Shown here piece after piece: positions 1 to 15,826 of a stretch of DNA of 64,000 bases. Below the pieces are notes generated by a model. The model saw nothing but the letters and a program-made list of their open reading frames with translations. It did not search any database and had not been told where the DNA came from. Source of the DNA: Planctomycetota bacterium (lineage in GTDB: Bacteria; Planctomycetota; UBA1135; UBA2386). Position numbers and translations under genes: made by a program. Each line of letters starts with the position of its first letter. Within the stretch, counting starts at the first letter, position 1. Where the stretch lies: contig OZ245838.1 of NCBI GenBank assembly GCA_965228735.1, positions 4,480,001 to 4,544,000 on the forward strand, written 5' to 3'.

Positions 1-450
1 GAACTGGCCGGTGCGGAACCTGCTCTCCTCCTCGGACGGCGGCCACAGCGGCACGAGCTTGCCGGCGACGAGCTGCGGATCGATCTTGAGCAGGCGGATC
101 TTGAGCTCGGGATCCTCGGGCAGGAGCCGCGCCTGGTGCACCGAACCGTCGTAGAGCACCACGCGCGTGCGGTCCTTCTGCAGCAGGATCTGATCGATCG
201 TGAGGATGTGTCCTTCGGCGCTCACGAGGATGCCGGTGGCGTAGCTCGTGATGCCGCGGATGCCCGACGCGCCGTGAATCTTCACGAGGCTCGGCATCAC
301 GCCGTCGATGACCTTCTCGACCGCGGTGCGCGGCCCGCGCTGGGCGAACGAGTAGGCCTTGCCGAAGTCCTCGGTCTGGGCCACAGCATCGATCGACAGC
401 ACCAGGACAGCGGCGATCGTCGACAGGAGTGTCGCGGTGCGGGCCATCAT
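1..450 (-). CDS. Trypsin-like (S1C/HtrA-like) protein, 5' part only (runs off window); probably non-catalytic
   Basis: Own translation, not in the ORF track: MMARTATLLSTIAAVLVLSIDAVAQ... (signal peptide) ...SLVKIHG...ATGILVSAEGHILTIDQI...VVLYDG...EDPELKIRLLKID. ATG at 450 overlaps the TGA of the upstream gene (ATGA). Confidence 0.75.
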   Translation of the reverse strand, partial: MMARTATLLSTIAAVLVLSIDAVAQTEDFGKAYSFAQRGPRTAVEKVIDGVMPSLVKIHGASGIRGITSYATGILVSAEGHILTIDQILLQKDRTRVVLYDGSVHQARLLPEDPELKIRLLKIDPQLVAGKLVPLWPPSEEESRFRTGQF

Positions 451-2330
451 TGCGGCCTCCGGAACGTCGAGTCCTGGACCTCGACTGCGGCGCTGCGCAC
501 GAGCCGGTAGTCGAACAACGGGGTCTTGCCGTCCTTCACGACGAACAGCTCGGGGGCGCCGTCGCCCGCGACCGGCCCGACGTGGAACTCCATCTGCGCG
601 CGGTGCAGCGGGTCGCGGAACGTGTATCCGATCGGCTCGCCCGTGATCGTCAGCCACGCCTCGCAGACGCTGCCGGCATCGCCGGGAATGACGAACCGAA
701 AGCCCGGACGGCCGTGCACGTGCACGCCGCCGATGAGCTCCGCGTTCTGCAGGCGCTCGCGCACCTTCGCGGCCGGCCAGAGGAACGGATTGCTGCGCAG
801 CTCACGATCGAGCCGCGCCTTCTCCTCGACGCCGAGCTGCCGCACGGTGTCGCCGTCGACCGCGAAGCCCTCGCCGCCTGCGCCGCGCACGAGCTGCAGG
901 CCGCCGGTCGTGAGGTGCAGCCGTTCGCCGTCGCTCACGAGCTTCGTCGTGACACCTTCCCCGTCGACATACTCGAAGTGGCGTCCGCCCGGATCGTTCG
1001 TCGCTGGCGCCGTGAAGCGCGCCAGCAGCGCTTTCACGGCAAGCCGCCGGTCGATGCGGTTGGCCATGCGCGCGTCCTCGCCGTAGCCGTCCTTGCTCGA
1101 GCCGGTGTCGAGCACGGCCATCTTCACGGTGACGCGACGTTCGTCGCCGAAGCCGCCGGCCTCGAGCGACGGCCGGAAGCCGACCTCGACCCACGTGAAC
1201 GCGGGCAGCACGCCGATCATCGTCGCGAGCTGGTTGGCCGAGCGCACGTCGACGCCGTTGAACCACGTGATCTCGTCGCCGATCGACACGCCGGCCTCGG
1301 CGACGACCGCGTCGCGGTAGATCTGCTGCACGTAGACGCCGCGCTGGCGCTCCTCGCCCGTGCCCGAGTTCATGAACCACGCGCTCATGTCGAGCGTGCC
1401 GTGCTCGGCGTGGCGCCCGGCCATCATGTCGCCGAGGAAGTTCTTGATCTGGTTGCTCGCGATCGCGAACCCAACGCCGACGTTCACGCGGCCGCGGTCG
1501 CCGATCGAGATGCGGCCGTTGATGCCGATCACCTCACCCGCCTCGTTGAACAGCGGTCCGCCCGAGTTGCCCGGGTTGACCGGCGCATCGACCTGGATGC
1601 AGTCGGGGTAGACGAGCATGCGCTGGCCGCCGCCCGACTGGTACCGGTGGGTGCCCGAGACGATCCCGAACGTCACCGTCGGCGTGAAGTCGGTCGCGAG
1701 CAGGAACGGGTTGCCCATCGCGAACACGGTCTCGCCGACGAGCAGCGCGTCGCTGTCGCCGAGGTCGCAGTAGGGCCAGGTCTGACCCTCGTACTTCGGC
1801 ACGAGGCGCAGCACCGCGAGATCGCTGCCCGGGTCGATCCCGAGCACGATGCCCTCGTAGAGCTTGCCGTCGGGCATGCCGACCTTCTTGTTCTTGTAGA
1901 GGTCGGTGCCCTGCGGCCAGTGGTCGAGCCGCCACTCGTCCTTCCATGCTTCGACGAACTCGTGGAACTTCGAGTCGTCGGCGTCCGGGTGCTCCTTGCG
2001 CCACTCGTCGACGAGTTCCTGCGGCGGCTCGGGCGTATCCGGCAGGTCGTAGTCGTCATCGGCCTTGCCGACGACGTGGAAGTTGGTGAGCACGTAGCCG
2101 TGCGGATCGAAGACGACCCCGCTGCCGCCGCCCGGCGCGTCCATCGACATCACGGAGCACACCGCGGCCGCGCAGCGCTCCATGGTCTCGACCCGGCGCT
2201 GCTGGCTCTCGAGCACCGCGGCGAGTTCGGGGTCCTGCATGCCGCACAGGGCGGCTGCCATCGCGAGCATCATGACTGGGATTCGGGGGTTGGGCGCGCC
2301 GCCTCGCGGGGCGCGCAGCGAGATGGCCAC
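447..2330 (-). CDS. HtrA/DegP-like serine protease (S1C) with PDZ domain and C-terminal extension
   Basis: GGGSGVV, LTNFHV (His), DLAVL (Asp), DAPVNPGNSGGPL (Ser), PDZ-like AGVSIGDEITWFNG. Start placed at GTG 2330 (or ATG ~2273); the longer ORF-track start overlaps the upstream gene. Confidence 0.9.
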   Translation of the reverse strand: MAISLRAPRGGAPNPRIPVMMLAMAAALCGMQDPELAAVLESQQRRVETMERCAAAVCSVMSMDAPGGGSGVVFDPHGYVLTNFHVVGKADDDYDLPDTPEPPQELVDEWRKEHPDADDSKFHEFVEAWKDEWRLDHWPQGTDLYKNKKVGMPDGKLYEGIVLGIDPGSDLAVLRLVPKYEGQTWPYCDLGDSDALLVGETVFAMGNPFLLATDFTPTVTFGIVSGTHRYQSGGGQRMLVYPDCIQVDAPVNPGNSGGPLFNEAGEVIGINGRISIGDRGRVNVGVGFAIASNQIKNFLGDMMAGRHAEHGTLDMSAWFMNSGTGEERQRGVYVQQIYRDAVVAEAGVSIGDEITWFNGVDVRSANQLATMIGVLPAFTWVEVGFRPSLEAGGFGDERRVTVKMAVLDTGSSKDGYGEDARMANRIDRRLAVKALLARFTAPATNDPGGRHFEYVDGEGVTTKLVSDGERLHLTTGGLQLVRGAGGEGFAVDGDTVRQLGVEEKARLDRELRSNPFLWPAAKVRERLQNAELIGGVHVHGRPGFRFVIPGDAGSVCEAWLTITGEPIGYTFRDPLHRAQMEFHVGPVAGDGAPELFVVKDGKTPLFDYRLVRSAAVEVQDSTFRRPQ

Positions 2331-2337
2331 GGCGCCG

Positions 2338-3588
2338 TCAGCGTCGCAGCACGCGGGCCTCGGCGAACGCGCAGTAGTCGCCGAGGTCGTAGTTCTTGCC
2401 GAAGTCGACTTCGAGCGCGAGGGTCTTGGCCTTGCCGAGCTCCAGGCGCACGCGCTCCGGCGGCATGCCGCGCGTGCGGCCGTCGGACTCGTACGCGACC
2501 TTGCCGTCGACGTGCACGCGGAACACGGCGTGCGCCTGCGGCCCGCCGCGGTCGTCGATGCCGATCGTCGCCTCGAAGACGTCGTACTCGCCGCCGAGGT
2601 CGAACGTGAGCCTGGTGTGCGGCACCATGCCGATCCCACGGCCGAACGTCTCGCCCGCGAGCTGGAAACCCGGGCCGGCGACGGACCGATCGACGGTCCA
2701 CGGCCACACCCGATCGAACGCGGGCGTCTGGGCGACGGTGGGCTCGAACTCGGACAGCCAGCGCAGCCGATCGCTCGCGACCGTGAGCCGCGCGAGTCGA
2801 CCGCTCGGGATCGCGACCTCGCAGCCCTCGTCGAGCCGCAGTCGCAGGTTCGCGCCGAGCGCGAGCAACCGGCCTTCGAGGTGATCACCGGTGTCACAAT
2901 CGATGGCGACGCGCGGCGGCGCCTGCTCGTCGGCTGCGAAGCCGGTATTGTTGCCGAAGACGATGCCGAGCACGTCCGCGAGTGGATACTCGATCTCCCG
3001 ATCGCGCAGCCGGAACAGCACCTTGTCGGCCTGCATGCCGGCGACGGTCACCTGGAAGCGGCGCTGCTCGCCGTCGCGTTGGACGTAGAGGAAGTCGCGG
3101 TTCTCCGGCGCGTCGTCGAGGTCGTTGCTGAACGACGCCGGTGCAGCGCGGCCCTCGCCGGCGTGCCGTACGGCGCGCAGCGTGCTGAGCGGCAGCTCGA
3201 GCGTGACCCCGACCGAGAGCTCGACGCCGAGGCGCGCGGGCTGCCCGCCGCCGGCCGCGATGCCGTGGATCTTCCGGGCGGCGAACTGCTGGCCCGAACG
3301 CAGCCACACCCGATGCGGCGCCGCCGTGTTCGCGGGCTTGACCGCATCCGGGGTGAAGCTCGTGACCTCGTCGAGCGTCAGCGTGACCGTTTCCCCCGCG
3401 GTCTGGACGGTCACGTTGCCGTCCCCGTTCGCGGTGAGCGTTCCCGTGAGCTTGCGGCCCTCGATCGTCTCGACGAGACCGACGGGGCCACCGGCGGGCG
3501 GCGCGGCCTCCTGGCTTCGCACCGCCCCCGCGACTACGGCGACGGCAGCGAGCGCCGCGACGGTGAACGCAGAACGGTCCGCGCTCAC
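2338..3588 (-). CDS. Secreted NPCBM/NEW2 domain protein
   Basis: C-terminal DRSVAG...RGIGM...LTFDLGGEYDVFEATIGIDD...FRVHVDG...LEVDFG..DLGD..AFAEAR fits NPCBM; signal peptide after GTG 3588, which overlaps the upstream stop (GTGA). Confidence 0.85.
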   Translation of the reverse strand: MSADRSAFTVAALAAVAVVAGAVRSQEAAPPAGGPVGLVETIEGRKLTGTLTANGDGNVTVQTAGETVTLTLDEVTSFTPDAVKPANTAAPHRVWLRSGQQFAARKIHGIAAGGGQPARLGVELSVGVTLELPLSTLRAVRHAGEGRAAPASFSNDLDDAPENRDFLYVQRDGEQRRFQVTVAGMQADKVLFRLRDREIEYPLADVLGIVFGNNTGFAADEQAPPRVAIDCDTGDHLEGRLLALGANLRLRLDEGCEVAIPSGRLARLTVASDRLRWLSEFEPTVAQTPAFDRVWPWTVDRSVAGPGFQLAGETFGRGIGMVPHTRLTFDLGGEYDVFEATIGIDDRGGPQAHAVFRVHVDGKVAYESDGRTRGMPPERVRLELGKAKTLALEVDFGKNYDLGDYCAFAEARVLRR

Positions 3589-4631
3589 CGGCTGCCCGTG
3601 CCCGTGCCGAGCTTCTTGTAGTACTGCTCGAGCATCTTGCGGTACTGCGGCGGCAGCGAGTTCTGGATCTCGGCCTCGATCTTCTCGCGGTCGCGATCCT
3701 TCATGTCGCCCCACCGGTCGGCGAGCGTCGGCTTGGTCTTGAGTTCACCGACCGAACCGTCGCCCTCGGGGAGGCCGCTGCTGTTGGCCGGGTTCTGCGA
3801 CGGGCCGTTGCCCGACGGCGGACCGCTCGACTGCTTCTCCATCTCCTCGTACATCTCGATGAGCTGCTGCAGCTCCTCGAGGTACTTCTCCTGCTCGATC
3901 TGCACCGGCTCGTGCGTGCGCTTCTTCTTCAGATCGCGCCGCGTCTTCTTCATCCGGTCCGCGAGGTTGTGGAGCTGGCTCTCCTGCTGGCGCTCGAGCT
4001 CGAGCACCTGCTGGTGGGCCGCCGAACGGAAGCGTTCGCTGGCCTCGGGGAACCACTGCAAGAACGCCTTGAAGCGCGGGATCGCGAGGTCCGGGTACGG
4101 GATCTCGGCGAGCGACTGCGCGTAGTAGAACGCCGCTTCGGCATCGAGCGGCGAGTTGTTGATGTCCTGGCGGATGTATTCGCCGAGCACCTCGACGGTG
4201 CGCTCGGGGTCATCGCTCTCGAGGAAGACCTCGGCCAGGTGGTAGCGCACGTGCGCGCGCAGCAGGCCCTGGTCCGGCTTGGCGCCGGCCAACACCTGCG
4301 TCAGCGCGAGTGCGGCCTTCGGATCGGCGTCCTCGTGCAGCTTGACCGCCGCATCGAAGGCCGGCACCGCCGCGCGCACGAGCATGTCGGCGGCGGTCGT
4401 GAGACCGTATTCGTCGACATTGGTGCGGAACGTCTCGATCTGCTGCGCCGTCGCGCCGAGCGCGGTCGCGGCAGTCTCGAACTTCTCCTGGTCGAACGGC
4501 CGGAACGGGTTCTCCGCGATGGGCTGACCGGAGCCGCCACCCTGACCGCTGCCTTCTTGGGCGAACGCCAGGCCCGCGCTCAGCGTGAGCGCGAGCAGAC
4601 CGGTGGCGCACGTCCTCACGAGGAGGCTCAC
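3585..4631 (-). CDS. Secreted TPR/coiled-coil protein
   Basis: Signal peptide; TPR-like helices (AAFYYAQSLAE..AIPRFKAFLQWFP); C-terminal WGDM...LPPQYRKMLEQYYKKL; SD GGAGGG upstream. Confidence 0.8.
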   Translation of the reverse strand: MSLLVRTCATGLLALTLSAGLAFAQEGSGQGGGSGQPIAENPFRPFDQEKFETAATALGATAQQIETFRTNVDEYGLTTAADMLVRAAVPAFDAAVKLHEDADPKAALALTQVLAGAKPDQGLLRAHVRYHLAEVFLESDDPERTVEVLGEYIRQDINNSPLDAEAAFYYAQSLAEIPYPDLAIPRFKAFLQWFPEASERFRSAAHQQVLELERQQESQLHNLADRMKKTRRDLKKKRTHEPVQIEQEKYLEELQQLIEMYEEMEKQSSGPPSGNGPSQNPANSSGLPEGDGSVGELKTKPTLADRWGDMKDRDREKIEAEIQNSLPPQYRKMLEQYYKKLGTGTGSR

Positions 4632-6625
4632 TTGCCCTCCTCGGTGTGGTTCTCCTTGTTGAGCTTGACCGCGAGCTTGCGCATCAGCTGCTGGACGCGA
4701 CCCTGCTTGCCGGACAGCAGTCCGGCCTCGGCGTCGCCTTCGGCAGTGTGCTTGGCTTCATCGGCTTTCTCTTCGTAAGCCTTGGTCGCCTTGTTCACGC
4801 GTTCCTGGAGGTACTTCAGCATCTTGAGCTCTGCCGACACGGGCACGAGCGGCGGTTCCCCGCCTCAACCAGACCCCGTTCAACCACCGCCTTCTTTGAT
4901 CTCGATGGTCTTGCGGAGCGCGTTGATCAGGAGCTCGAGGGTGTCCTCGACCTCCTTCTGCTTGAGCTGGACGATCGTGCCGGTCTCGTAGGCGCGGCAA
5001 CGCGACGCGACGTCGTGCAGCTGCTCCTTGAGGTCCATGACGATCTCGGGGAACACGGCCGTGCTGCCCTCTTCTTCGAGCAGCTTGAGCGCGTCGCTGG
5101 CCTCGACCTCGAGGTCACCCTCGCCGGTCGCGACGAGCATGATCTTGTCCTTGAGCGCGGCCGGCAGCGACCCGTCGGCCGTGAGGACCGTCTCGCGCTG
5201 ACCGTGCAGCGTCGTCGTCGCGATCGTCAGCTCGCGCTGGATCGCGAGCATCGCCGTGAAGCGTTCTTCGAGCGCGCGCAGCACCTCGTCCTTGAGCTGC
5301 TGGCGCAGCTGGGCGAGGGCCTCTTCGAGCTCCTTGCTCGCGGCCTCGAGGTTCTCCTTGGCGTCCTGCTGGTCCTGCTTGGCCGGCTTGTACTCCTTGA
5401 GCGTGCCGGCGGCCGAGCGCTGCTGCGGCACGGCCTGCTGCACGCGCTTCTTGCCGGGCGTCGGCTGACCTTCGTTGTTCTCGTCGCCCTTCTCCGCGTC
5501 TTCCATCTTCTGGGAGAGCGTGTCCGTGGCGTGTTTGGTGTTCTCCTGGCGTTTGGCCAGTTCGTCGAACGGCAGCTTGTCGAGCTCGCGGCGAGCCTCG
5601 TCGATCATGTCGTCGAGTTCGGCGACGGTCTTCTTCAGGTTCTCGATCGCGTGGTCCTGATCCTTGAGCGCCGGCTCCGGCTGGTTGTCGCCGAGCTTCT
5701 CGCACGCCTGCCCCATCGCGCCCGCGGCCTTGCCGGCGCTCCCAGCACTGCCCTTCGACGGCTTGCCGGGTTGCGACTCGCTCGGTTCGCCAGGCTTGCT
5801 CTCGCTCGGCTCGCCGGGCTCGCTCGGCTCACCCGGCTTGCCGGGCTCACCGGGCTTCCCGGACTCACCAGCCTTCGGCTCGCCCGCCTTCGGGTCGCCG
5901 GCCTTGGCCTCGGCGTCGAGTTCGGCCTTGTCGGCCTCGAGCTCCGCGAGATCCTCGGCGAGCTTCTCGGTGTCTTCCTGCAGGTCCTTCTCCTGCTTGC
6001 CGAGCTCGTCGGTCTGGCCTGCCGCGGCCTCCATGCCGAGCTCGTTCGTCGCCGCGCGCAGCTCCTGCTGACGACGCAGCAGCTCGGCCGCCTCGGCGCG
6101 CTTCCGCTCGGCTTCCTTGATGAGCTCCTGCAGCGCTTCGACGCGCGCGGAGTCTTCCTTCTCCTCGCCCTGTTCCTGCGCCAGACGATCGACCTCCTTC
6201 TTGAAGTTCTCGAGCTGCGCGATGCGCTCGAGCAGCTTCCGCAGGTCGTCGTTGCGGTTCTGCAGGATCTCGTAGAGCTTGGTGAGCTTCTCGCGCACCT
6301 GGCCGATCTCGACGAGCGCGTCGTCCCAGCGCTCCTGCCCGAGCAGCGTGCGCACGCGCGCCATCTGCTCGTGGATCTTGGCCTCCTGCACGTACTGGCT
6401 GCCGGCCCGCAGGATGCTCGCGTCGGTCGCCGCGTTGGCGTCGGCGTCGTCCTTCTGCAGGACGAGCATCAGCTTCTGCATGCGCTCGGTGAGATCGCGG
6501 AACTTGGTCCGCGCCATCTCCTGCTTCGTGATCGCCGACGGATCCTGCGCCACGAGGGGCGGGCCGATCGGCACCATCGCCACGAACAAGAGTGCCGCTA
6601 GGGCGGCGATTCCGCGTTGCATCAT
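4628..6625 (-). CDS. Secreted coiled-coil protein (665 aa if read through) with two in-frame UGA codons; candidate selenoprotein/readthrough gene
   Basis: ORFs 4880..6625 and 4628..4846 share a frame. Junction: ATC AAA GAA GGC GGT GGT TGA ACG GGG TCT GGT TGA GGC GGG GAA CCG CCG CTC GTG CCC = IKEGGG*TGSG*GGEPPLVP, continuing VSAELKMLKYLQERVNKAT. The coding status of both parts is well supported; the fusion is inferred. Confidence 0.65.
4828..4864 (-). promoter_or_regulatory. Two adjacent hairpins 3' of the in-frame UGAs (putative tandem bacterial SECIS-like elements)
   Basis: mRNA GGCGG-GGAA-CCGCC (4864-4851), loop 20 nt after UGA1; GCUC-G-UGCC-CGUGUC-GGCA-GAGC (4850-4828), loop 23 nt after UGA2. 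Folded by eye. Confidence 0.5.
5750..5905 (-). repeat. Low-complexity coding repeat ((K/E)PGEP-type linker)
   Basis: KAGDPKAGEPKAGESGKPGEPGKPGEPSEPGEPSESKPGEPSESQPGKPS. Confidence 0.85.
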
Positions 6626-6633
6626 GGGGTCAC

Positions 6634-8886
6634 CTACTTGCCATTCTTCTTCGGCTGTTTGTCGCCCTTGTCCGGACCACCGAAGAACTCGTTCTCGGAC
6701 GCCTGAGCCTTGCCCTCGACGTCCTGAATCACGGATTCCTCTATCTTTATCACGGTTCGGAGTTCCTCCAGCAGTGCCGCGAGGGTCTCCGCCTGTTCCA
6801 TTTCTGCGAACACGGCCAACAGGCGCCGCTCGATATCGATGTAACCGTCTATCGCCGCTTTGCTTACCTCGGCTTCGCGAGTCCGTGCAAAAGTATCCAC
6901 CTGGCGCCCCGTCGTCGGGAAAGCCTCCTTGGCAACGGCCGTCAGGGGAGCCGGGATCACCCGTTCCATCTGCCGCACCTTCCCGGACTCGATCAGGCGG
7001 TTGTTCTCGTACTCCCAGAGGATGCGCTGGTAGGACTCGGCGATGAAACTCGTCCGGCGGCCGAGCGAGACCTGCTGCCGCGCCAGGGTGCGCAGCCGCC
7101 CCATCACGCGGCGCTCGCGGTCGCCGACCTTGCCCTGGTTCACGACCGCGCTGAGCTCCCTGAGCTCGAGCAGGCCGGCCTGATGTTCGGTGATGATGCG
7201 GCCGAGCTCCTGACGCTGCTCGATCTGGCGGCGCCGCAGGTCCTCGAGCAGGCGCTCGCGGGTGACGACGCGGAACGTGAGCGTCTCGCAGTAGCCGGTG
7301 TGCGGTTCACCCGGCCCGAAGTTGTCGCGAGCGCGGTAGCGCATCGACAGCGTCATGCCGGGACGGATGCGGTTGTCCGCGTGGTTCTGCGCCGGCTGCG
7401 GATTCCATTGCCGCAGATCGACCGTCGCCTCGGTCTCGTAGCGCAGCGTGTTGGTCGTCATCGCCTCGACGTAGGACGCGGCGGCGTTCTCGAACGGTGC
7501 TGGCGGCACCACGGTGTCGCTGCCCGAGTCCTGCGGCGCGTCCTCGGCGATGCGCAGCTCGACGCCGATCTCACGCAGGCCGAAGTCGTCCTTCACCTTG
7601 AGCGTGCCCGGGATGCGCGCGTGGCTCGCGATCAACGAACCGATGCCACGCAGGCGCAGGTCGACCTTGGGCGCGCGGTCGTCGCCGACGCGCAGCAGGA
7701 GCTTGGGTGGCGCGCTCGCGCCGAGTTTGTCCGTGTCGATCACGTCGATGACGAGCAGCCCCGAACTCTCGGGCACGAGCTCGCCGGAAAAGGACCGGCC
7801 GTCGCCGGCACGTGTAAGCGGATACTTGCGGTCGTCGCCGAACAGCAGGAACGCCTCGTCGATCGGCTTGTGGGAAGTGCCCGCGACGAGCAGCTTGGAG
7901 CCGCTCGGCAGCCGCAGGTCGCCCTCGGTCGGCGGCACGACGTCGTTCTCCCGTTCCATGTACTCGGGATAGACGATCTCGAGCTGCAGGTCGCCGATGC
8001 GCGGCCGTTCGACGATCGTCACCGCGAGCTCGACCGGCAGCGCGTCGCCGCCCTCGGCCCGCAGGACGACGTCCTCGAGCACGGTGTCGAGCGTGAGCGT
8101 GAACTCGCCGTCGCCCGTGGCGCTCATCGGTTCGCTACCGACGTCACCGCCCGCGAACTCGTAGTCGAGGAACACCTGCTCCGGCATCTCGCCGCTCGCG
8201 ACGATGCGCACGGTGAGCGCGTCACCCTGCGGCAGGCGCACGGCGCCCTCGGCGTCCGCGAACGACAGCGTCGTGTAGCGCGGCCAGTCGACGCTGGAGA
8301 GCAGCAGGTTGCGCTGCGCCCAGATGCCCAGCGTCGAGCCGCTGATCGCGCCCCAGACGATGAAGAACAGCAGCGTGAAGACGATCGCGGCGAAGAACTT
8401 GCCGACGCGGCCGCCGTTGATCGCGTTGCCGAACGGGATCGAGTCGAGTCGCGCCGACGTGCTGCGCACCACCTCCGACATCATGTCCGTCGATTCGATG
8501 CTCGCGGCAGCCGCTCCGACGCCGCTGCCGACGAGCCGTTGGTCGAACTGCAGCGAGCTGATGAGCGATTGTTTGATGCCGGGCGCGCGGCGTTCGACCG
8601 CGAGCGCCATCTCCTCGTCGTCGAGCGTCACCGCCATCGGCCGCACGAACCGATGGCGCACCATCCGGAACACGACGACCGCGAAGCTCAGCAGCAGCAC
8701 CGCGCGGAACGCGAACTCGAGCCGCAGGAAGCGATCCGTGATCAGCGTCGGCATCGCGTAGGCCACGAGCAGCAGACCGAACGCGCCGAGCGTCTCGATC
8801 CAGATGCCACGGCGCGCGCGCGCCCGCAGTCCGTCGAACTTGGTCCTGGCCTGGCCGAGGATCACGCCGTCTGCAGTCGATGTCAT
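6634..8886 (-). CDS. Membrane-anchored protein with Ig-like middle region and coiled-coil C-terminus (DUF4175-like)
   Basis: Three N-terminal hydrophobic segments, LISSLQF, WPRYT, YPEYM, DDRAPKV, DDFGL; ATG 8886 overlaps the upstream stop. Confidence 0.75.
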   Translation of the reverse strand: MTSTADGVILGQARTKFDGLRARARRGIWIETLGAFGLLLVAYAMPTLITDRFLRLEFAFRAVLLLSFAVVVFRMVRHRFVRPMAVTLDDEEMALAVERRAPGIKQSLISSLQFDQRLVGSGVGAAAASIESTDMMSEVVRSTSARLDSIPFGNAINGGRVGKFFAAIVFTLLFFIVWGAISGSTLGIWAQRNLLLSSVDWPRYTTLSFADAEGAVRLPQGDALTVRIVASGEMPEQVFLDYEFAGGDVGSEPMSATGDGEFTLTLDTVLEDVVLRAEGGDALPVELAVTIVERPRIGDLQLEIVYPEYMERENDVVPPTEGDLRLPSGSKLLVAGTSHKPIDEAFLLFGDDRKYPLTRAGDGRSFSGELVPESSGLLVIDVIDTDKLGASAPPKLLLRVGDDRAPKVDLRLRGIGSLIASHARIPGTLKVKDDFGLREIGVELRIAEDAPQDSGSDTVVPPAPFENAAASYVEAMTTNTLRYETEATVDLRQWNPQPAQNHADNRIRPGMTLSMRYRARDNFGPGEPHTGYCETLTFRVVTRERLLEDLRRRQIEQRQELGRIITEHQAGLLELRELSAVVNQGKVGDRERRVMGRLRTLARQQVSLGRRTSFIAESYQRILWEYENNRLIESGKVRQMERVIPAPLTAVAKEAFPTTGRQVDTFARTREAEVSKAAIDGYIDIERRLLAVFAEMEQAETLAALLEELRTVIKIEESVIQDVEGKAQASENEFFGGPDKGDKQPKKNGK

Positions 8887-11381
8887 AGCAGGTTGAACCT
8901 CTTGCGCAGCGTCCACTCGATCGCGAGCACGATGATCAGGAACATGATCGTCGCCCAGCCGTCCCACAGCGGGTGCGGCGTGCGGAACGTGTCCGTGGCC
9001 GAACGCGACGGGATCTCGTCGAGCGCCGTCAGCAGTTCGCCCGGCGTGTTGAGCAGGCGTCCGCCCGTCGCCGCGGCGATCGCGGCGAGCTCGGAGCGAT
9101 CCATCGGACCGTCACGCTCGATCTGCGCGGCGACGACCTGGAACGTGAGCTCGACGTTCTTGCCCATCTTGCGCGCCGGTCGCACGCGATACGTGCCGAG
9201 CTGCGTCGGGCGGAACTGCAGCTCGTAGCTGCCGGGCACGCTCTCGATCGGGACGAGCTGCACGTTCTCGGTCTCGCCGCCCTCGCGTTCGACGAGGATC
9301 TCGAACGCGTCCGCGAGCCACGGCTGCAGCGCCTCGTCCTTGACGTCCGCCGTGACGAGCACGGCCTCGCCGAGGTCGACCTTCTCCGCGTTGGCCGTGA
9401 GCCGCAGTCGGCTGTTACCCGCGAAGATGCGGCCTTCGAACAGGTACCGGATGCCGTTGATCCAGAACTTCACGTAGGCGTCCATGAAGATGGAACGCCA
9501 GCGATAGGTCTCGTCCGTGCCGAGCCAGAACACGCGGCCGGCGCCGACGTTCTGCATCGCGAACATCGTCATGCCGTGGCCGTCCCGCCGGAACTTGGGA
9601 TCGGGGTTGGTGCTCTCGACGACGCTCGTCGCCGCGGCCTTGAGGCGCTTGACCGGGAACCAGAAGTGGAAGCCCGGCAGGCGCGACCACACGATGCGGC
9701 GCTTGCTCTTGTCGTCCTCGATGCGCGACACCTTCGCCGCGACGCCGTCCGCGCCGTCCGCGGCGAGCTCGTAGGGCCACGGCCGCGGGAACGCGATGCC
9801 GAAGTTGACCATCTTGCGCTGCGCGAAGTCGATGTCGGGGATGACCGGCAGCAGGTCCGCGAGCGGTGAGGTCTTGGCCTCGGGCACGAGTGCTGCGAGC
9901 GTGAACTTCTCACCGCACACCCACCACAGACCGCACCCGCCCTCGACGACGTGCGCCGCGAGGTTGTCGCAGAACGTCGACGTGAGCGTCTCCGGGTTGG
10001 GGTCGATCATCACGACGACGTCGTAGGGATCGAACTCGGACCGCGCCTCCGGCAGCTTGTCGATACGCACGCCGTCGTTGCCGTCCTGCGGGAACTTCGG
10101 ATCGGCGTTCTGCACCCAGCACGTGACGTCGATCGTCTTGTCGCGGACGAGCAGGTTGCGCAGCATCTGATACTCGAAGATCGACGCGCCGGCGACGAGC
10201 AGCACGCGCGCGCGCTCGTCGAGCACCTCGACCATCTGCACCTTGCTGTGGCGTTCGGGTGCCGGCGGTTCGCCATCCGGCGGCTCGACGACGCTGCGGT
10301 AGAGGAAACGTCCCGCGGTGTCCGACGTGAGCTCGCGCCACTCGACCGTCACCTCGGTCTGGCTGCCGCCGATCTCGACCTGTTGCGTCGCGACGGTGGA
10401 TTCGCTGCCCTTCTCGTCCGTGCGCAGCAGCCGCACCGTGACGGTCGTCGGATCGTAGCCCTGCGAGCTCACGTTGGAGCTCATCTGGAACTTGTCCTTC
10501 TGGAACACCTTCTCGGGCGCTTCGAATCGCGACAGCTCGACGGTCTGCGTCTCGGACGGATCCCCGATGCCGAGCACGAACGTGTGCGGGATCTTGCGCT
10601 GGTTGAGCAGACGCGCGACCTCGGCGCCCTGCGGCCCGGCGTTGCGGCGGCCGTCGCTGACGATCACGACCGCGGCGATCTCGGAGCTGCGGCTGCGATC
10701 GAGCGCGGTCCGCAGACTGCCGCCGAGGTTGCTGAAACGACCGTCGGCCGCGAGCTTGCTCAGGTCGAGCCGCGGTGCGGGCGGCTCGTCCGGCACGATC
10801 GGCTGTCCGTTCTCGTCGAGCGGGTTCGGCGGCGGCGGCAGCAGCGGCAGGTTCTCGAGCGCGCCGGCGAACGAGTAGAGCTGCGGCACGTTCTTGCGGC
10901 CGAGCTTTTCGACGACGGCGCCGTCCTCGTGGCCGAGCAGCGCCTTCACGAGATCGATGCGGCGCTGGCCGACCGGGTCGTCGACGCCGATCTGGCGCCA
11001 GCCGTTGCTGAGCTCCTGGACCTCGGCGCGGCGGAACGCGTCGACCTGCGTCATCGACTGCGACGAGTCGACGAGCAGGATCGTGTGGCCCGGTCGCGTC
11101 TCGCGCTTCACGGTCACGAGGTTGGGCTCGAGCAGCACGAGGATCGCGACGACGACCGCGAGGATGCGGAAGAACGCGAGGGTCGCGCGCTGCATGCCCG
11201 TGAGGTTCTTGCCGTCGCGGCGATACATCCAGCCGATCGCGATGACCGCGAGCAGCATGCCGAGCAGCACGAGCATGCCGAGGCCGCCCGTCGGGAACGC
11301 GGCGAATTCGAACTGCAGTTCGTCCCCCGGTTCGGGGGTCACGCCTTTCCAGGCGGCGAGCCAACGCAGGAAGTCGTCCAT
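8883..11381 (-). CDS. Membrane vWA-domain protein with glutamine-amidotransferase-like middle domain
   Basis: MIDAS LVDSSQSM, VIVSDGRRNAG, GGCGLWWVCGE, GAGRVFWLGTDETYRWR, C-terminal TM ending EWTLRKRFNLL; SD GGAGG before ATG 11381. Confidence 0.85.
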   Translation of the reverse strand: MDDFLRWLAAWKGVTPEPGDELQFEFAAFPTGGLGMLVLLGMLLAVIAIGWMYRRDGKNLTGMQRATLAFFRILAVVVAILVLLEPNLVTVKRETRPGHTILLVDSSQSMTQVDAFRRAEVQELSNGWRQIGVDDPVGQRRIDLVKALLGHEDGAVVEKLGRKNVPQLYSFAGALENLPLLPPPPNPLDENGQPIVPDEPPAPRLDLSKLAADGRFSNLGGSLRTALDRSRSSEIAAVVIVSDGRRNAGPQGAEVARLLNQRKIPHTFVLGIGDPSETQTVELSRFEAPEKVFQKDKFQMSSNVSSQGYDPTTVTVRLLRTDEKGSESTVATQQVEIGGSQTEVTVEWRELTSDTAGRFLYRSVVEPPDGEPPAPERHSKVQMVEVLDERARVLLVAGASIFEYQMLRNLLVRDKTIDVTCWVQNADPKFPQDGNDGVRIDKLPEARSEFDPYDVVVMIDPNPETLTSTFCDNLAAHVVEGGCGLWWVCGEKFTLAALVPEAKTSPLADLLPVIPDIDFAQRKMVNFGIAFPRPWPYELAADGADGVAAKVSRIEDDKSKRRIVWSRLPGFHFWFPVKRLKAAATSVVESTNPDPKFRRDGHGMTMFAMQNVGAGRVFWLGTDETYRWRSIFMDAYVKFWINGIRYLFEGRIFAGNSRLRLTANAEKVDLGEAVLVTADVKDEALQPWLADAFEILVEREGGETENVQLVPIESVPGSYELQFRPTQLGTYRVRPARKMGKNVELTFQVVAAQIERDGPMDRSELAAIAAATGGRLLNTPGELLTALDEIPSRSATDTFRTPHPLWDGWATIMFLIIVLAIEWTLRKRFNLL

Positions 11382-11391
11382 CATGTCCTCC

Positions 11392-13698
11392 TCAGCGACG
11401 GCCGAATCGCATGGCCAGGAAAGACTCGGCCAGGAGGCCGAGCACGAGAGCGGCGGCGAGGATCTTCCAGATCTCACCTTCGCCCGAACCACCACCGAGA
11501 CCGCCATCGGCCCCGACGAACGTCACGCGATCGTGCAGCTCCTGCGGGAAGAGCCGGGTGAACGCCTTCTTCTCGAACTTCTGCAGCCGGCTCTCCGTGG
11601 CCGGCGCGTTGCGCGCGAGGATGCGCGTCTCGGGCGCGCCGTCGTGCCGCGAGAACTCGACCGCGTAGGCGCCGAGCTCGCGCAGATCGCGCATCGGCAC
11701 CACGAGCTCCCACGCGCGCTGGTCGACCGTCGGGTCGGCACTGCCGCCCGGAACGTTGCCGCCCGGAACACTGCCGCCCTGGCTCTCGCCGCCCTGGTTC
11801 TCGCCGTTACCGGCATCGCCACCGGGCGTCTCCGGCTCGGGCTCGGTCGCGGTGAACGTGCGCTCCTCTCCGTCACCGCCGAGCGCGCGCAGCGTCACGT
11901 CGGGGCGGTAGACGCCCGGGTCGAGCTCGGTGCGGTAGGTGCCGTTCGGGTCGAGGTTGTTGCCGCTGAGGTCGGGCCGGCGCGCGGACGACTTGTGCAG
12001 CTCCATCACGGCCGGCACGAAGAGTTCGGTCACCGGCAGGTTCGACCAGTGCTTGTCCGCCGTGATGGCGAACGCCGAGACCTGACCGCCGCCGCTGCCG
12101 AACGGCCGCGTCACGATCAGCGGCGGCCCCTCGGCGTCGCGGATGCGCGCGACGATCGCCGCGTCGTGGTCGAACTCGTGATCGAAGGCGATCCAGCGCT
12201 TCACGAGCACGACGTTGTTCATCAGCAGCTCGAACACCTCGCCGAGCCCGCCGCACATCGGATGGTCCTTCTTCGTGAGCACCGCGGGTTCGGGCCGGTC
12301 CGGGTCGCCGTCGACCTCGAGCAGCGGCAGCGGCAAGAGTCCCTTGCCGTCCTTCCACAGCAGGTCGTTGTAGCGCTGCACGTCGATCAGCGCGCCGCAG
12401 AACACGCCGAGGCCGCCGCCGTTCCCGACGTAGGCCTCGAGCCGCTCTGCGAACTCCTCGGTCGGCGCCTGCACGTTGCAGAGCCAGATGAAGTCGAACG
12501 GTTCGAGGTCGAGCTCACCGAGACCGGTGTCGGACACGACCTGCAGTTCGAAGCCGAACCGCTGATCGCCCGTCGGATCGTACGCGGACACGACGAAGAA
12601 CGTCTCGCCCAGGTCCTCGTCCGGGTCGCCGTCGACGAGCAGTACGCGACTCTTCTCCTTCACCTCGATCGCGAACGCGCGCGCGTCGTCGAGCGGGAAG
12701 TGCTCCGTCGTCTCGAGCCTGGCCTCGACGCGGTGGAAGCCCGCGCTGCCGAACGTGTGCGACGCCGGCAACGCCACCTTCTCGCCCGGCGCGAGCTGCG
12801 GCACGTCGAGGCTCACGCTGCTCTGACCGTTGACCTGGAACGCGATCGACGTCGGCATCGTCGCGTCGAGCCCGTGGTTCTTCACGTCGATCGCGAGCGC
12901 GACCGGCACGTTGGCCACCGCGAGTCGGTCGACGAGGCGGATGTCCGTCACGCCGAGGTTGGGATGCTGGCCGCCAACGTCGAGCACGGTGAGGTGCTCG
13001 GTCTCGGGGTTCATCGCGGCGATCGCCGTAACGAGTGCGGGCTGCGCCTGGTCGTCCGGCGTCGCGAAGTCGTACTGCCGTTGATCGCAGACGAGGTAGT
13101 ACTCGGTCCGCCCGGCTTCCTCGACCGTGCTCGCGCGCTGCTGCGCGTTGCTGAACGCCTTGCCGAGGTCGGGCGACGTCTGGCTCACGAGCCACTCCTT
13201 GAGGCCGCTGCCGATGCGCCGCGCGACGTCGGGGCCGACCTGGACCTTCCACAGGTCGGGCTCGGTGCTCTTCGTGCTGCGGACGATCGAGATGAGATCG
13301 CCCGACCGCGTCTTGCTCAGGTCGTCGGCGAGCGCGCGGACGCGATCCTGCGCGCGTTCGAACAGGCTCGCGCTGCCGCTGATCTGGGTCATCGACGCGC
13401 TGTCGTCGAGCACGACGACGTGGTGCGTGATCGACCCGATGAGCCCGCCGCCGCCGAGCTGCGGCCGCGCCACGAGGAACCCGAGCAGCAGCACCGCGAG
13501 CACGCGGAGCAACAAAACGAGCCACTGCTCCATGCGCAGGCGCTTGCGGTTGCGCTTCATCGCCTTGAGCAGGAACTCCATCGCCGCCCACTGCACCTTC
13601 TTGAAGCGCCGGCGGTTGAGGATGTGGATGATGATCGGCACCGCCGCGAGCGGCAGCGCCCAGAGCAGCATCGGATTGAGGAAAGCGAGTGCGAGCAT
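11392..13698 (-). CDS. BatA-domain + vWA + CARDB/Ig-like membrane protein
   Basis: N-terminal FLNP..LWALPLAAVPIIIHILNRRR..V.WAAMEFL (BatA); VLDDSASM MIDAS; VLLVDGDP; C-terminal TM. Confidence 0.9.
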   Translation of the reverse strand: MLALAFLNPMLLWALPLAAVPIIIHILNRRRFKKVQWAAMEFLLKAMKRNRKRLRMEQWLVLLLRVLAVLLLGFLVARPQLGGGGLIGSITHHVVVLDDSASMTQISGSASLFERAQDRVRALADDLSKTRSGDLISIVRSTKSTEPDLWKVQVGPDVARRIGSGLKEWLVSQTSPDLGKAFSNAQQRASTVEEAGRTEYYLVCDQRQYDFATPDDQAQPALVTAIAAMNPETEHLTVLDVGGQHPNLGVTDIRLVDRLAVANVPVALAIDVKNHGLDATMPTSIAFQVNGQSSVSLDVPQLAPGEKVALPASHTFGSAGFHRVEARLETTEHFPLDDARAFAIEVKEKSRVLLVDGDPDEDLGETFFVVSAYDPTGDQRFGFELQVVSDTGLGELDLEPFDFIWLCNVQAPTEEFAERLEAYVGNGGGLGVFCGALIDVQRYNDLLWKDGKGLLPLPLLEVDGDPDRPEPAVLTKKDHPMCGGLGEVFELLMNNVVLVKRWIAFDHEFDHDAAIVARIRDAEGPPLIVTRPFGSGGGQVSAFAITADKHWSNLPVTELFVPAVMELHKSSARRPDLSGNNLDPNGTYRTELDPGVYRPDVTLRALGGDGEERTFTATEPEPETPGGDAGNGENQGGESQGGSVPGGNVPGGSADPTVDQRAWELVVPMRDLRELGAYAVEFSRHDGAPETRILARNAPATESRLQKFEKKAFTRLFPQELHDRVTFVGADGGLGGGSGEGEIWKILAAALVLGLLAESFLAMRFGRR

Positions 13699-13708
13699 CA
13701 GCGAGGGG

Positions 13709-14752
13709 TCAGCGCTGGTAGATGGGGACCAAGGCGTATGGCAGCTGCAGGATCAGCAGAGCGATCGCGGTGCCGTAGACCGGCCCGACGCTGTCACCGA
13801 GCCAGCTGCCGTCCGGACGCTGCTGCTCGCGCAGCCACGACGCCATCGCGATGAAGTAGTCGGACCACTGCGAGCCGCCGCGCTGGTAGCGCGCCTGGCT
13901 CCAGTAGAGGTGGGCGTAGTAGTGGTGACCCGTGGTGTCGGTGCGCACGGCGAGCGCGCGGTCGCAGTAGCGGAACGCGGCGTCGACGAACTCCGCGTCG
14001 TCGTAGATGCCGGCGTTGTAGAACACCGCCACGCCGGCCGCGGTGATCGCCGGCCGACTGCTCGGACCGCCGCGCAGCTTGTAGCGCACGCCGCCGTCCT
14101 CGTTCTGGCAGCGGCGGACGTAGCTCACGGCGCGGTCGACGATGCGACGGTCGACGACGATGCCGGCCATGCGCGCCGCGCGCAGCGCCTGCAGCTGCGT
14201 GATCGTGACGCTGCCCTCGTCGTCGTTCTGATCCGGCCGATAGATCCACCCGCCGGCGGTCGACTGCGCTGCGGCCGTGACCGCGACGGCGCGATCGAGC
14301 GCGCGCTTGAGCCGCCGCTGCTGGTGCAGGTCCTCTTCCATCCCGTAGACCGACGCGAGCAGCAGCGTCGCGAAGCCGTGGCCGAACATCGGCACCGGGT
14401 CGTCCGGGGTGTGGATCAGACCGTTCTCACGTTCGGCACAGCCCAGGAGGAACTCGACGGCGCTGCGCACCTGCCGCCAGAAGCGACCGCGCGTCGGCGT
14501 CGAGCCGGACGCGACGAACGCCATCGCCGCGAGCGAGGTCATCGCGACCGGGTAGCCGCCCGCGTCGGCGCCGTCCGATCGCCAGCTGCCGTCCGCCGTC
14601 TGCGATCGCGCGAGCCACTCGAGCCCGTCGTCGATCGCGCGCGCCGACGCGGCCGTGACACCGGCCGGCAGACCCTGCGCCCTCGCGGGCACGGCCGTGC
14701 CCACGAACGCGAACGCCGCGACAGCGGCGCCGATGCCCAGTCGGAAACTCAC
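13709..14752 (-). CDS. Prenyltransferase/squalene-oxidase repeat protein (paralog B)
   Basis: QW-type repeats GLEWLARSQTADGSW, AQSTAGGWIY, CQNEDGGVRY, QQRPDGSW; signal peptide. Confidence 0.9.
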   Translation of the reverse strand: MSFRLGIGAAVAAFAFVGTAVPARAQGLPAGVTAASARAIDDGLEWLARSQTADGSWRSDGADAGGYPVAMTSLAAMAFVASGSTPTRGRFWRQVRSAVEFLLGCAERENGLIHTPDDPVPMFGHGFATLLLASVYGMEEDLHQQRRLKRALDRAVAVTAAAQSTAGGWIYRPDQNDDEGSVTITQLQALRAARMAGIVVDRRIVDRAVSYVRRCQNEDGGVRYKLRGGPSSRPAITAAGVAVFYNAGIYDDAEFVDAAFRYCDRALAVRTDTTGHHYYAHLYWSQARYQRGGSQWSDYFIAMASWLREQQRPDGSWLGDSVGPVYGTAIALLILQLPYALVPIYQR

Positions 14753-14762
14753 CGTCGGAACC

Positions 14763-15815
14763 TCACCGCTGGAAGATCGGGCAGAGGGCGTAGGGCAGCT
14801 GCAGCAGCGTCAGCGCGATCGCGGTGCCGTAGACCGTGCCGACCCCGTCGCCGTCCCAGCTGCCGTCCTTCTTCTGCTGCTTGAGCAGCCAACGCGCCTT
14901 CTTGTCGTAGTAGTCCCGCCAGTCCGAGCCGCCGCGCTGGTAGAGCGCCTGCGACCAGTAGAGGTGCGTGTAGTAGTGGTGACCGGTGTTGTCGACCGTC
15001 ACCGAGATGTGCTTCTTGCAGTAGTCGTAGGCCTTCTCGGCGAACGGCTGGTCGTCGTAGATGCCCGCGTTGTAGAGCACCGCGACGCCGGCCGCCGTGA
15101 TCGCCGGGCGACTGCCGCCGCCGGAGTTGAGGCTGTAGCGGATGCCGCCGTCGCTCGTCTGGCAGCGCTTGATGTAGTTGACCGCGCGGTCGATCGTCTT
15201 CTTGTCGACGACGATGCCCGACATGCGGCACGCGCGCAGCGCCTGCACCTGCGTGACCGTGACGCTGCCCTCGTCGCTGTTGCTGTCGGGAGTGTAGATC
15301 CAGCCGCCGGCCGAACTCTGCGCGGCGGCGATCAGACCGACCGCCTTGTCGAGCACGCGCTTGAGCCGACGCTGCTTCGTCAGATCCTCCTCCATGCCAT
15401 AGACCGACGCGAGGTAGAGCGTCGCGAAGCCGTGGCCGTACATGCTGCGCCCTTCCTCGGCCGGCACGGAGACGAGCCCCGTTCGCGGGTCCGAGTTGTC
15501 GATGAGGAACTGCACGGACTCGCGCACTTCGCGCCAGTGGCGGCCGCGCGTCGGCGTCGAGCCCGACGCGAGCAACGCCATGCCGGCGAGGCCGGTCATC
15601 GCCGCGGGGTACGAGCCGTAGCCGCCGCTGTTGCGCCATGCGCCATCAGGGCCCTGGTTGCGCGCCAGCCAACCGAGACCGCGCTGGATCGAATCGGCGA
15701 TGGCCTTGTCGACGCCGGGCGGGAAGGCGTAGTCCTGAGCGGAGAGAGCGCCCGCGCACCCGCTGATGGCAGCGGTGAACGAGAACGCGAGCGTGAGTGA
15801 GTTGCGCAGGATCAT
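14763..15815 (-). CDS. Prenyltransferase/squalene-oxidase repeat protein (paralog A)
   Basis: GLGWLARNQGPDGAW, AQSSAGGWIY, CQTSDGGIRY, QQKKDGSW; signal peptide from ATG 15815. Confidence 0.9.
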   Translation of the reverse strand: MILRNSLTLAFSFTAAISGCAGALSAQDYAFPPGVDKAIADSIQRGLGWLARNQGPDGAWRNSGGYGSYPAAMTGLAGMALLASGSTPTRGRHWREVRESVQFLIDNSDPRTGLVSVPAEEGRSMYGHGFATLYLASVYGMEEDLTKQRRLKRVLDKAVGLIAAAQSSAGGWIYTPDSNSDEGSVTVTQVQALRACRMSGIVVDKKTIDRAVNYIKRCQTSDGGIRYSLNSGGGSRPAITAAGVAVLYNAGIYDDQPFAEKAYDYCKKHISVTVDNTGHHYYTHLYWSQALYQRGGSDWRDYYDKKARWLLKQQKKDGSWDGDGVGTVYGTAIALTLLQLPYALCPIFQR

Positions 15816-15826
15816 CCTGTTGCCTT

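Follow-up and report, generated by a model that had tools for sequence, protein, structure and literature searches.

The window analysed here is a stretch of 64,000 nucleotides from a Planctomycetota bacterium (contig OZ245838.1), and the gene under study lies on its minus strand at 4628..6625. Translation of the window from 6625 to 4628 gives one frame of 665 aa with exactly two internal stops and no frameshift, as stated in the original prediction, which proposed that both stops are read as selenocysteine (Sec, U). The internal stops are the TGA at 4882-4880 (codon 582) and the TGA at 4867-4865 (codon 587), each preceded by GGU in the messenger, and the terminal stop is the TGA at 4630-4628. 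The frame, the homologs and the U at position -1 indicate a likely Sec codon at both internal positions. The open reading frame (ORF) listing splits the gene into ORFs of 581 aa and 72 aa, and the frame is uninterrupted in the 34 of 87 orthologs that lack UGA.

The N-terminus of the protein is a predicted signal peptide (residues 1-26, 6548..6625, minus strand), recognised by inspection and alignment as a hydrophobic stretch ending in LVA-Q (consensus LRA-Q). By inspection, with no predictor, such a signal-like N-terminal segment is also conserved in another 24 homologs of full or nearly full length; of the exported 665-aa protein proposed earlier, the conserved segment thus stands, and export itself is suggested by this inspection. 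Residues 436-580 (4886..5320, minus strand) form a predicted four-helix bundle, modelled by AlphaFold2 with a mean predicted local distance difference test (pLDDT) score of 88.8 and a predicted template modelling score of 0.83. The model of the last 230 residues consists of four helices, a 17-residue loop that holds both U residues (pLDDT approximately 65-68) and a helical hairpin. Conservation, the model and a family profile delimit the C-terminal 78 residues (4631..4864, minus strand), which comprise the PLVPxSAELK motif and the predicted helical hairpin and would be made only upon readthrough. The family hidden Markov model matches before the stops (model positions 1-145, E 1e-63) and after them (152-229, E 1e-29), indicating one interrupted domain.

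Both TGAs, together with the two downstream RNA hairpins called here hairpin 1 (4851..4864, minus strand) and hairpin B (4828..4850, minus strand), were compared with other assemblies and are retained in all of them. The contigs of four runs out of four, from four studies, are letter-identical over 4600-5200; this comparison concerns assembled contigs in place of reads, and they may be close to the source. From run X14, a strain with a divergence of about 2% shows 15 differences within 4460-5032, none of them in either TGA or hairpin, and one of them is a synonymous Gly change between the two TGAs. An assembly error is not behind the two TGAs. As TGA terminates 2780 of the 4085 long genes of the source genome, it is the normal stop there and the code is standard, so the earlier statement that there is no genome-wide code change was right. 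The rare codons noticed at the junction are indeed rare in this genome (GGT 13%, TCT 1.7%, AAA 5%), and GGT fits the U-before-UGA pattern presented below.

The C-terminal 230 residues, used as query, match 88 of the 91 genomes of the GTDB family, and the 87 strong matches were aligned; one weak match (G057) and the three genomes with no match (G023, G030, G066) stand outside the alignment, and three weak paralog loci served as outgroup only. Among these 87 orthologs, the loop has two UGAs in 14 genes, one UGA in 39, Cys only in 26 and neither in 8, with UGA found in 20 of 39 genera. A Cys partner is present in the loop of 33 of the 39 single-UGA orthologs. All 67 internal stops are TGA, no UAA or UAG occurs in the loop of any of the 87, no frame offset is seen at the junction in any of them, and Trp is never found at the UGA positions. 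The homologs thus show Cys and TGA alternating at the place where the original prediction expected one or the other. The tail is conserved like the body (58% versus 63% identity). The motifs counted in the loop are UxxC (16), UxxxU (11), CxxU (9), CxC (9), CU (8) and CxxC (6), with the rarer single U (6), single C (6), CxxxC (3), UxxxxU (2), CCxC (2) and Ux5U (1), and, since the spacing varies between orthologs, a column-exact pairing of Cys with U is approximate.

The source genome (7.19 Mb, 69% GC) has the complete Sec machinery, selA, selB, selD and the tRNA-Sec gene selC with its UCA anticodon, as was to be checked for the Sec proposal, and selD itself carries an in-frame TGA. The selA and selD genes adjoin at G000:C1 121595-123694, with selB (1.54 Mb) and selC (2.83 Mb) elsewhere. 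Across the GTDB family, selA is present in 85 of the 91 genomes, and the four TGA carriers with no selA match are 62-81% complete, all four having a tRNA-Sec and three of them selB. A further signature, independent of RNA folding, is the nucleotide that precedes the UGA: U occupies position -1 at all 67 family UGAs (GGU, CAU, ACU, UGU or CCU, each with 3-17% usage in the source genome). The same holds for 13 of 14 canonical Sec genes whose UGA does not follow Trp; among terminal TGAs the count is 115 of 2077 and among Cys codons 3 of 48. A literature search of thin coverage found no description of a U before Sec-UGA, and this position is outside the bacterial SECIS (selenocysteine insertion sequence) consensus model as quoted in the passages of PMC13188914 that define it.

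That consensus, taken from the same passages (PMC13188914), requires a G within the loop's first two positions, a distance of 16-37 nt from the UGA and a stability of at most -7.5 kcal/mol, and the stricter form used here accepts loops of 3-6 nt that are G-G or G-U. The test is passed by 50 of the 67 family UGAs, compared with 6 of 48 Cys codons of Cys-only genes; when it is calibrated on the source genome, canonical Sec genes pass in 13 of 18 cases, Cys codons in 81 of 600 and terminal TGAs in 84 of 600. Both UGAs of the window gene pass, U582 with a GGAA loop at 20 nt (-12.3 kcal/mol) and U587 with a CGUGUC loop at 23 nt (-10.7 kcal/mol). The first of these loops belongs to hairpin 1, a 5-bp stem seen by folding and alignment, which would be either the SECIS of U582 or a spacer. 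The second belongs to hairpin B, a stem of 8 bp recognised by folding and by frozen synonymous sites, whose loop also lies 38 nt past UGA582. The hairpins differ between lineages of the family. Twenty-five single-UGA genes have, beginning 12 nt past the UGA, a stem of six pairs capped by a GGUCA or GGUCC loop; it is 100% paired and shows one compensatory pair. Hairpin 1 shares alignment columns with this GGUCA-loop SECIS of the single-UGA relatives, is 96% paired and has 11 double-change cells across 34 distinct rows.

Hairpin B lies within the PLVPVSAEL codons in the window gene and in 16 others, where the synonymous difference falls to 0.034, lower than in any other of 207 windows and compared with 0.38 elsewhere, and the equivalent codons vary freely in other groups (synonymous difference 0.52 and 0.44). 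Counted in a non-circular way, hairpin B occurs in 13 of the 14 two-UGA genes, 4 of the 39 single-UGA genes and none of the 34 genes with no UGA. The 17 genes that carry it are not one clade (3 changes; approximately unbiased test, p 5.5e-7), which indicates a repeated origin of the element, its transfer by recombination or several losses. Other Sec candidates of the source genome also have CGUG-type loops. Taken together, these data suggest that hairpin B is likely the SelB-binding SECIS. Whole-region folding z-scores, from -0.01 to -1.37, are not significant, so that stability alone is no evidence, and an Rfam scan of 4600-5100 gave one chance match only.

Several points weigh against Sec decoding or the hairpins assigned to it. 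The strict SECIS test is failed by 17 of the 67 family UGAs (7 of 67 when 40 nt are allowed). The 17-gene group of hairpin B was first chosen by the motif itself, which is circular, and no covariation is seen on hairpin B because it is invariant. Hairpin 1 may be partly a product of Gly-Gly and Pro-Pro codons, its covariation coming from few events. The related genes are not independent either, as 11 switches between U and non-U suffice on a tree from which the loop was left out (quick IQ-TREE search), a figure to be set in place of 53 independent UGA genes, and its long outgroup makes gains and losses of U indistinguishable. Finally, Sel genes occur in nearly the whole family, Cys-only members included, so that co-occurrence of Sel genes and UGA discriminates little. 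The one RNA run compared with the window (X20) has no coverage of the two UGAs. Nevertheless, the sel genes, the alternation of TGA with Cys and the SECIS-type hairpins all bear out the proposal of Sec, which was favoured by every refutation test that was run, and we consider it very likely that the two in-frame UGAs are decoded as selenocysteine.

How two UGAs 15 nt apart could both be read is suggested by the geometry of the hairpins. In all 14 two-UGA genes, the distal loop lies 37-38 nt from the first UGA and 19-26 nt from the second, a further hairpin intervening, and in 12 of them the loop of this intervening hairpin has no G in its first two positions. Furthermore, three genes with the first UGA only (G021, G022, G059) have hairpin B unchanged (0 of 9 synonymous differences, versus 25-34% elsewhere). 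A comparable arrangement, with a weak hairpin preceding a GGUC loop at 31 nt, is found in the four TlpA-like Sec genes of the source genome. These arrangements make it somewhat probable that a single SECIS, hairpin B, serves both UGAs. SelB with its Sec-tRNA would bind hairpin B and Sec would be inserted at 587, the loop being 23 nt off; at 582, the same hairpin B (38 nt) would probably act, with the RNA in between folded away into hairpin 1. Hairpin 1 would then be an older stem that provides the spacing for the first UGA and melts inside the ribosome when the second is read. Against a single SECIS counts the distance of 38 nt from the first UGA to hairpin B, just past the consensus limit, and so does the ability of the SelB hinge to accommodate different spacings, described in part of PMC4605307. 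Hairpin 1, with its GGAA loop, moreover passes as a SECIS alone in the window gene, where it could itself be the SECIS for U582.

A tandem arrangement, with hairpin 1 serving U582 and hairpin B serving U587, is a possible but less probable alternative. It accounts for hairpin 1 agreeing with the consensus in the window gene (GGAA loop, 20 nt) and occupying the columns of the canonical SECIS in single-UGA relatives. It fits poorly with the hairpin 1 loop, whose sequence is free to vary and which in 12 of 14 two-UGA genes has no G, and with a hairpin B that is frozen even in genes having the first UGA only. Whichever hairpin is used, the yield could be low: in E. coli, part of PMC4513850 reports one Sec codon read at 30-40% in a selenium-dependent manner, so that two UGAs would give roughly 10-15% full-length protein if this value is applicable here.

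The fold of the protein gives little indication of its role. Pfam and NCBIfam scans assign it to no family, with weak SMC-like coiled-coil matches far below cut-off, and Foldseek finds no match in the PDB at E<=0.001. The best VIA-align score (Z 14.7, rmsd 2.1, 127 aligned residues, with residues beyond approximately 154 barely covered) is for a designed four-helix bundle, closely followed by unrelated bundles; such generic matches are uninformative on function. A thioredoxin fold was considered and rejected, as the last 230 residues are modelled as an all-helical structure whose U residues lie in a loop and the full protein has no thioredoxin match in Pfam. The original prediction of a protein unlike the known selenoenzyme families agrees with this, the protein having neither a match to a catalogued family nor, in the model, a thioredoxin fold.

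In the loop itself, at least two Cys or Sec residues are present in 67 of the 79 chalcogen-bearing orthologs. This pairing, together with repeated Cys pairs in distant lineages, argues for a ring. A catalytic centre is made less likely by the variable spacing, by absence across most of the phylum and by the all-helical fold. We therefore put forward, as a tentative proposal a little short of probable, that the loop serves in the periplasm as an optional, non-catalytic diselenide staple or as a redox switch. Once the protein is exported, this loop, which connects the four-helix bundle with the C-terminal hairpin, would be oxidised to a Se-Se ring, with a Se-S or S-S ring in the relatives, and TlpA- or thioredoxin-like selenoproteins of the same organism could reduce this staple or switch. 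Against such a function speak the wide spacing of the loop residues (CU, CxC, UxxC, CxxU, UxxxU to Ux5U), the single Cys or Sec in 12 of 79 orthologs and the absence of both in 8 of 87, the lack of Cys in the loop of 38 of the 40 best homologs outside the family, and a His right before U in 19 of the 53 UGA genes, which fits metal binding equally well. Spacing variation, single or absent Cys/Sec and Cys-less relatives outside the family indicate that the pair is not essential. The UxxxxU spacing claimed for the window gene is confirmed there, while it is rare in the family (2 of 87) and the pair is dispensable in most Planctomycetota homologs.

Across the phylum, the C-terminal query matches 216 of 401 sampled genomes, and among the 40 best-scoring matches fetched from outside the family none has UGA in the loop and two have Cys, the internal stops there being C-termini. 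Of 150 public representatives, 7 end at the loop; the 141 full-length ones include 23 with Cys in the loop, 13 of these with two. Distant lineages that otherwise have Gly/Gln linkers carry Cys pairs (CDC, CKPC, CC) in the equivalent loop (L112 in G115, L122 in G234, P0028, P0043, P0051, P0091, P0100). In many orthologs (L025, L028, L032, L033, L039, L041-L044, L048, L050), the central Pro/Gly-rich linker terminates in another Cys site (C-S-G-S-A-G, sometimes CxC); this second site is absent from the window protein and has no UGA in the full-length genes read.

A soft-metal site (Cu, Zn, Hg or similar) formed by the inserted Sec, in place of a diselenide staple, seems rather unlikely. The His directly before U in those 19 UGA genes and the motifs C-x-H-U, H-U-x-x-C, CC-x-C, CxC and CU in a flexible Gly-rich loop would suit such a site, and Sec may be a metal ligand in SaoB, SaoC and UXX-star proteins according to part of PMC13188914. 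No His stands beside U in the window gene or in the 13 other two-UGA genes, and, of the operon genes scanned, none was recognised as metal-handling. Free selenols in the oxidising periplasm would also tend to oxidise, which counts against a metal site. More unlikely still are intermolecular Se-Se or Se-S links made by the inserted Sec to other subunits or an operon partner, or a passage of electrons to such a partner. The 12 of 79 orthologs with one Cys or Sec, in which an intramolecular ring is impossible, speak for such links, as does the proposal, in part of PMC3557215, that Bat proteins reduce periplasmic proteins or export reducing power; the same source describes a Bat deletion in Leptospira biflexa that revealed no role in oxidative stress, and the loop has neither a thioredoxin fold nor a fixed spacing.

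SECIS-independent readthrough, or a reading of UGA as Trp or Cys by another tRNA, is very improbable. Such readthrough reaches approximately 5-8% in E. coli (part of PMC4513850), and two leaky steps would leave less than 1% full-length protein; the tRNA-Sec is the sole tRNA with a UCA anticodon that was found, Trp never replaces the UGAs in the 87 orthologs, and the SECIS and -1 U signatures match those of canonical Sec genes. A pseudogene, a sequencing error or a split into 581-aa and 72-aa proteins, which the in-frame GTG at 4846 as a possible start of the 72-aa ORF and the 7 of 150 public representatives ending at the loop might suggest, is extremely improbable, because independent assemblies and diverged strains retain both TGAs, TGA accounts for all 67 internal stops, conservation of the tail is about that of the body, a separate tail would have no signal peptide, and the public truncations look as mis-called Sec genes would. 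Taken as a whole, the best explanation, which we regard as likely, is a Sec-decoded helical subunit of a Bat/vWA-type envelope complex, predicted to be exported, whose two Sec would probably form a diselenide staple within a flexible loop.

The neighbouring genes, all on the minus strand and tightly packed, give this subunit its context. Downstream of the gene, a 348-aa ORF with a signal-like N-terminus and no Pfam or NCBIfam family (3585..4631) has a GTG that overlaps the true stop (GTGA), and is followed by a gene with an NPCBM domain (2338..3714) and by an ORF with trypsin-like and PDZ domains (447..2897), an HtrA-like protease whose true start is probably downstream of the ORF start. Upstream lie a 777-aa membrane and helical ORF with no family match (6634..8967), a membrane protein with a weak BatD-like match (8883..11507; E 0.007, below cut-off), and a BatA/TIGR02226 double-transmembrane protein with CARDB and a weak vWA match (11392..13698). 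Pfam and NCBIfam scans further identify two squalene-cyclase/prenyltransferase-like alpha-toroid genes (13709..15956) and a protein with TPR and a PQQ-like (BamB-type) beta-propeller (15827..18616). By this content, the gene is part of a Bat/vWA-like envelope operon. A search for related loci among genome contigs returned one locus, L111, with a CU loop, in which the gene order is conserved. At L111 12944-16982, three consecutive trypsin-like genes lie downstream of the ortholog, one a close and two distant matches to the window protease.

A candidate start codon for the next gene shares bases with the true stop in 47 of 51 UGA genes and likewise in 33 of 34 non-UGA genes, so that selenium gating of the downstream genes would be a possible consequence and is no shown adaptation. 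As the C-terminal hairpin and the translationally coupled downstream genes lie past the UGAs, the availability of selenium would, if this holds, control whether the complex is assembled. An extended picture of a Bat-like envelope subunit, with repeated Cys/Sec swaps, SECIS elements evolved at several positions, one SECIS with a retired SECIS as spacer, a lineage-wide U-before-UGA rule for Sec codons and selenium gating, is unlikely to hold in full. If true, it would place a redox-active pair on a Bat-type envelope complex, and a periplasmic diselenide would be a concrete chemical handle for the long-proposed redox role of Bat-type systems. The natural series of Cys-only, one-Sec, two-Sec and empty loops could help to understand why Sec is gained in a non-catalytic loop, and the hairpin geometry suggests a testable rule for the reading of two close UGAs by SelB, of use in the engineering of multi-Sec proteins.

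A scan of the source genome for well-coding sequence past a TGA yielded 261 candidates. Seventeen of 20 motif-picked ones match families across the TGA (glutaredoxin, MsrA, peroxiredoxin, TlpA/ResA, deiodinase-like, AhpD, SelL-related, VPGUxxT and thioredoxin-like). Where U (or Trp) precedes the TGA, 34 of 54 readthrough candidates carry a SECIS-type hairpin as well, and a few further canonical ones do not pass the hairpin test. The source genome thus has roughly 35-40 Sec genes in an incomplete list, many of them apparently exported; the record selenoproteome in BSepDB is 63, as given in part of that source. Among the candidates, three GHPLGCT-U-(N/G)NG paralogs with a SECIS-like hairpin (G000:C1 7087946 (-), 4855623 (-) and 3484699 (+); L171, with a signal-like N-terminus and no Pfam or NCBIfam match) may form a new, probably thioredoxin-like Sec family. 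Three paralogs with U-C then S/C-x-P-Q-F-V-D and an AGUUC-loop hairpin at 19 nt (G000:C1 3065085 (+), 5872224 (-), 406817 (-)) are a candidate UC-motif Sec family. Further candidates with SECIS-like hairpins show the unfamiliar motifs CU-S (twice), GFA-U, GMW-U-P and WL-U-MC (G000:C1 2546238, 5458926, 5497385, 3235945, 5150736, all +). Others have what we take to be heavy-metal-associated-like motifs (G000:C1 2123 (-), 2372 (-), 3694905 (-), 583577 (+)), those at 2123 and 2372 being 249 nt apart in one frame and perhaps encoding one multi-Sec protein. The genomes of this lineage appear rich in unannotated Sec genes, for which the U-before-UGA signature offers a simple filter.

In comparison with known systems, the family very likely represents, judging from its sequence, an uncatalogued selenoprotein family with a predicted fold other than those of redox enzymes. 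It is absent from the 2026 catalogue of 119 families in Table 1 of PMC13188914, in the portion consulted, and from NCBIfam 20.0, Haft and Tolstoy 2025 and BSepDB Table S2 being outside the comparison. No description of it was found in the literature on planctomycete selenoproteins, novel selenoprotein families, bacterial SECIS or double-Sec proteins; the portions consulted of the BSepDB and deep-Sep main texts do not mention Planctomycetes, and those of the planctomycete paper PMC4807772 name only fdhA- and fmdB-type selenoproteins. At least 53 genes would be truncated by standard annotation, and the family would add a selenoprotein outside the usual redox-enzyme folds. DUF4175 (PF13779) resembles it by long coiled coils separated by Gly/Gln/Pro-rich linkers, and is weakly matched by 3 of 17 representatives (1 above cut-off); the window protein has no match to it, which rejects this assignment, and the weak matches of the representatives fall outside the Sec-bearing domain.

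With the Bat or MoxR-DUF58-vWA operons (Bacteroides batA-E; Leptospira, part of PMC3557215), the locus shares BatA/TIGR02226 vWA, BatD-like, TPR and secreted genes in tight coupling, and differs by its extra toroid, propeller, NPCBM and HtrA genes and by having no DUF58 in the window (10 matches elsewhere in the source genome). No MoxR AAA+ ATPase turned up in the domain scan of the 13 ORFs of 447-21347, no dedicated genome search having been made, and the parts of the Bat literature consulted describe no selenoprotein in such operons. The decoding system itself is already known: bacterial SelB/bSECIS genes, of which E. coli fdhF is the prototype, share the in-frame UGA, the downstream hairpin within the ORF, selABCD and Cys homologs, and differ from the present gene with its two UGAs 15 nt apart and its second hairpin between the first UGA and the conserved hairpin. 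Proteins with two Sec a few residues apart, as here, are also known, namely TsoB, UxxU peroxiredoxin-like proteins, the metal-binding NF041115 and FmdB-family UxxU proteins, and the UxxU motif has been described in another fold (part of PMC2398784). The same UxxxxU spacing is even catalogued in an unrelated protein, TsoB (NF045694; part of PMC13188914), and an NCBIfam scan gave no sequence match of the window protein to the catalogued double-Sec families. These known proteins have rhodanese/DsbD, thioredoxin-like or small metal-binding folds, in contrast with the predicted all-helical fold and the variable Sec spacing of the family described here.

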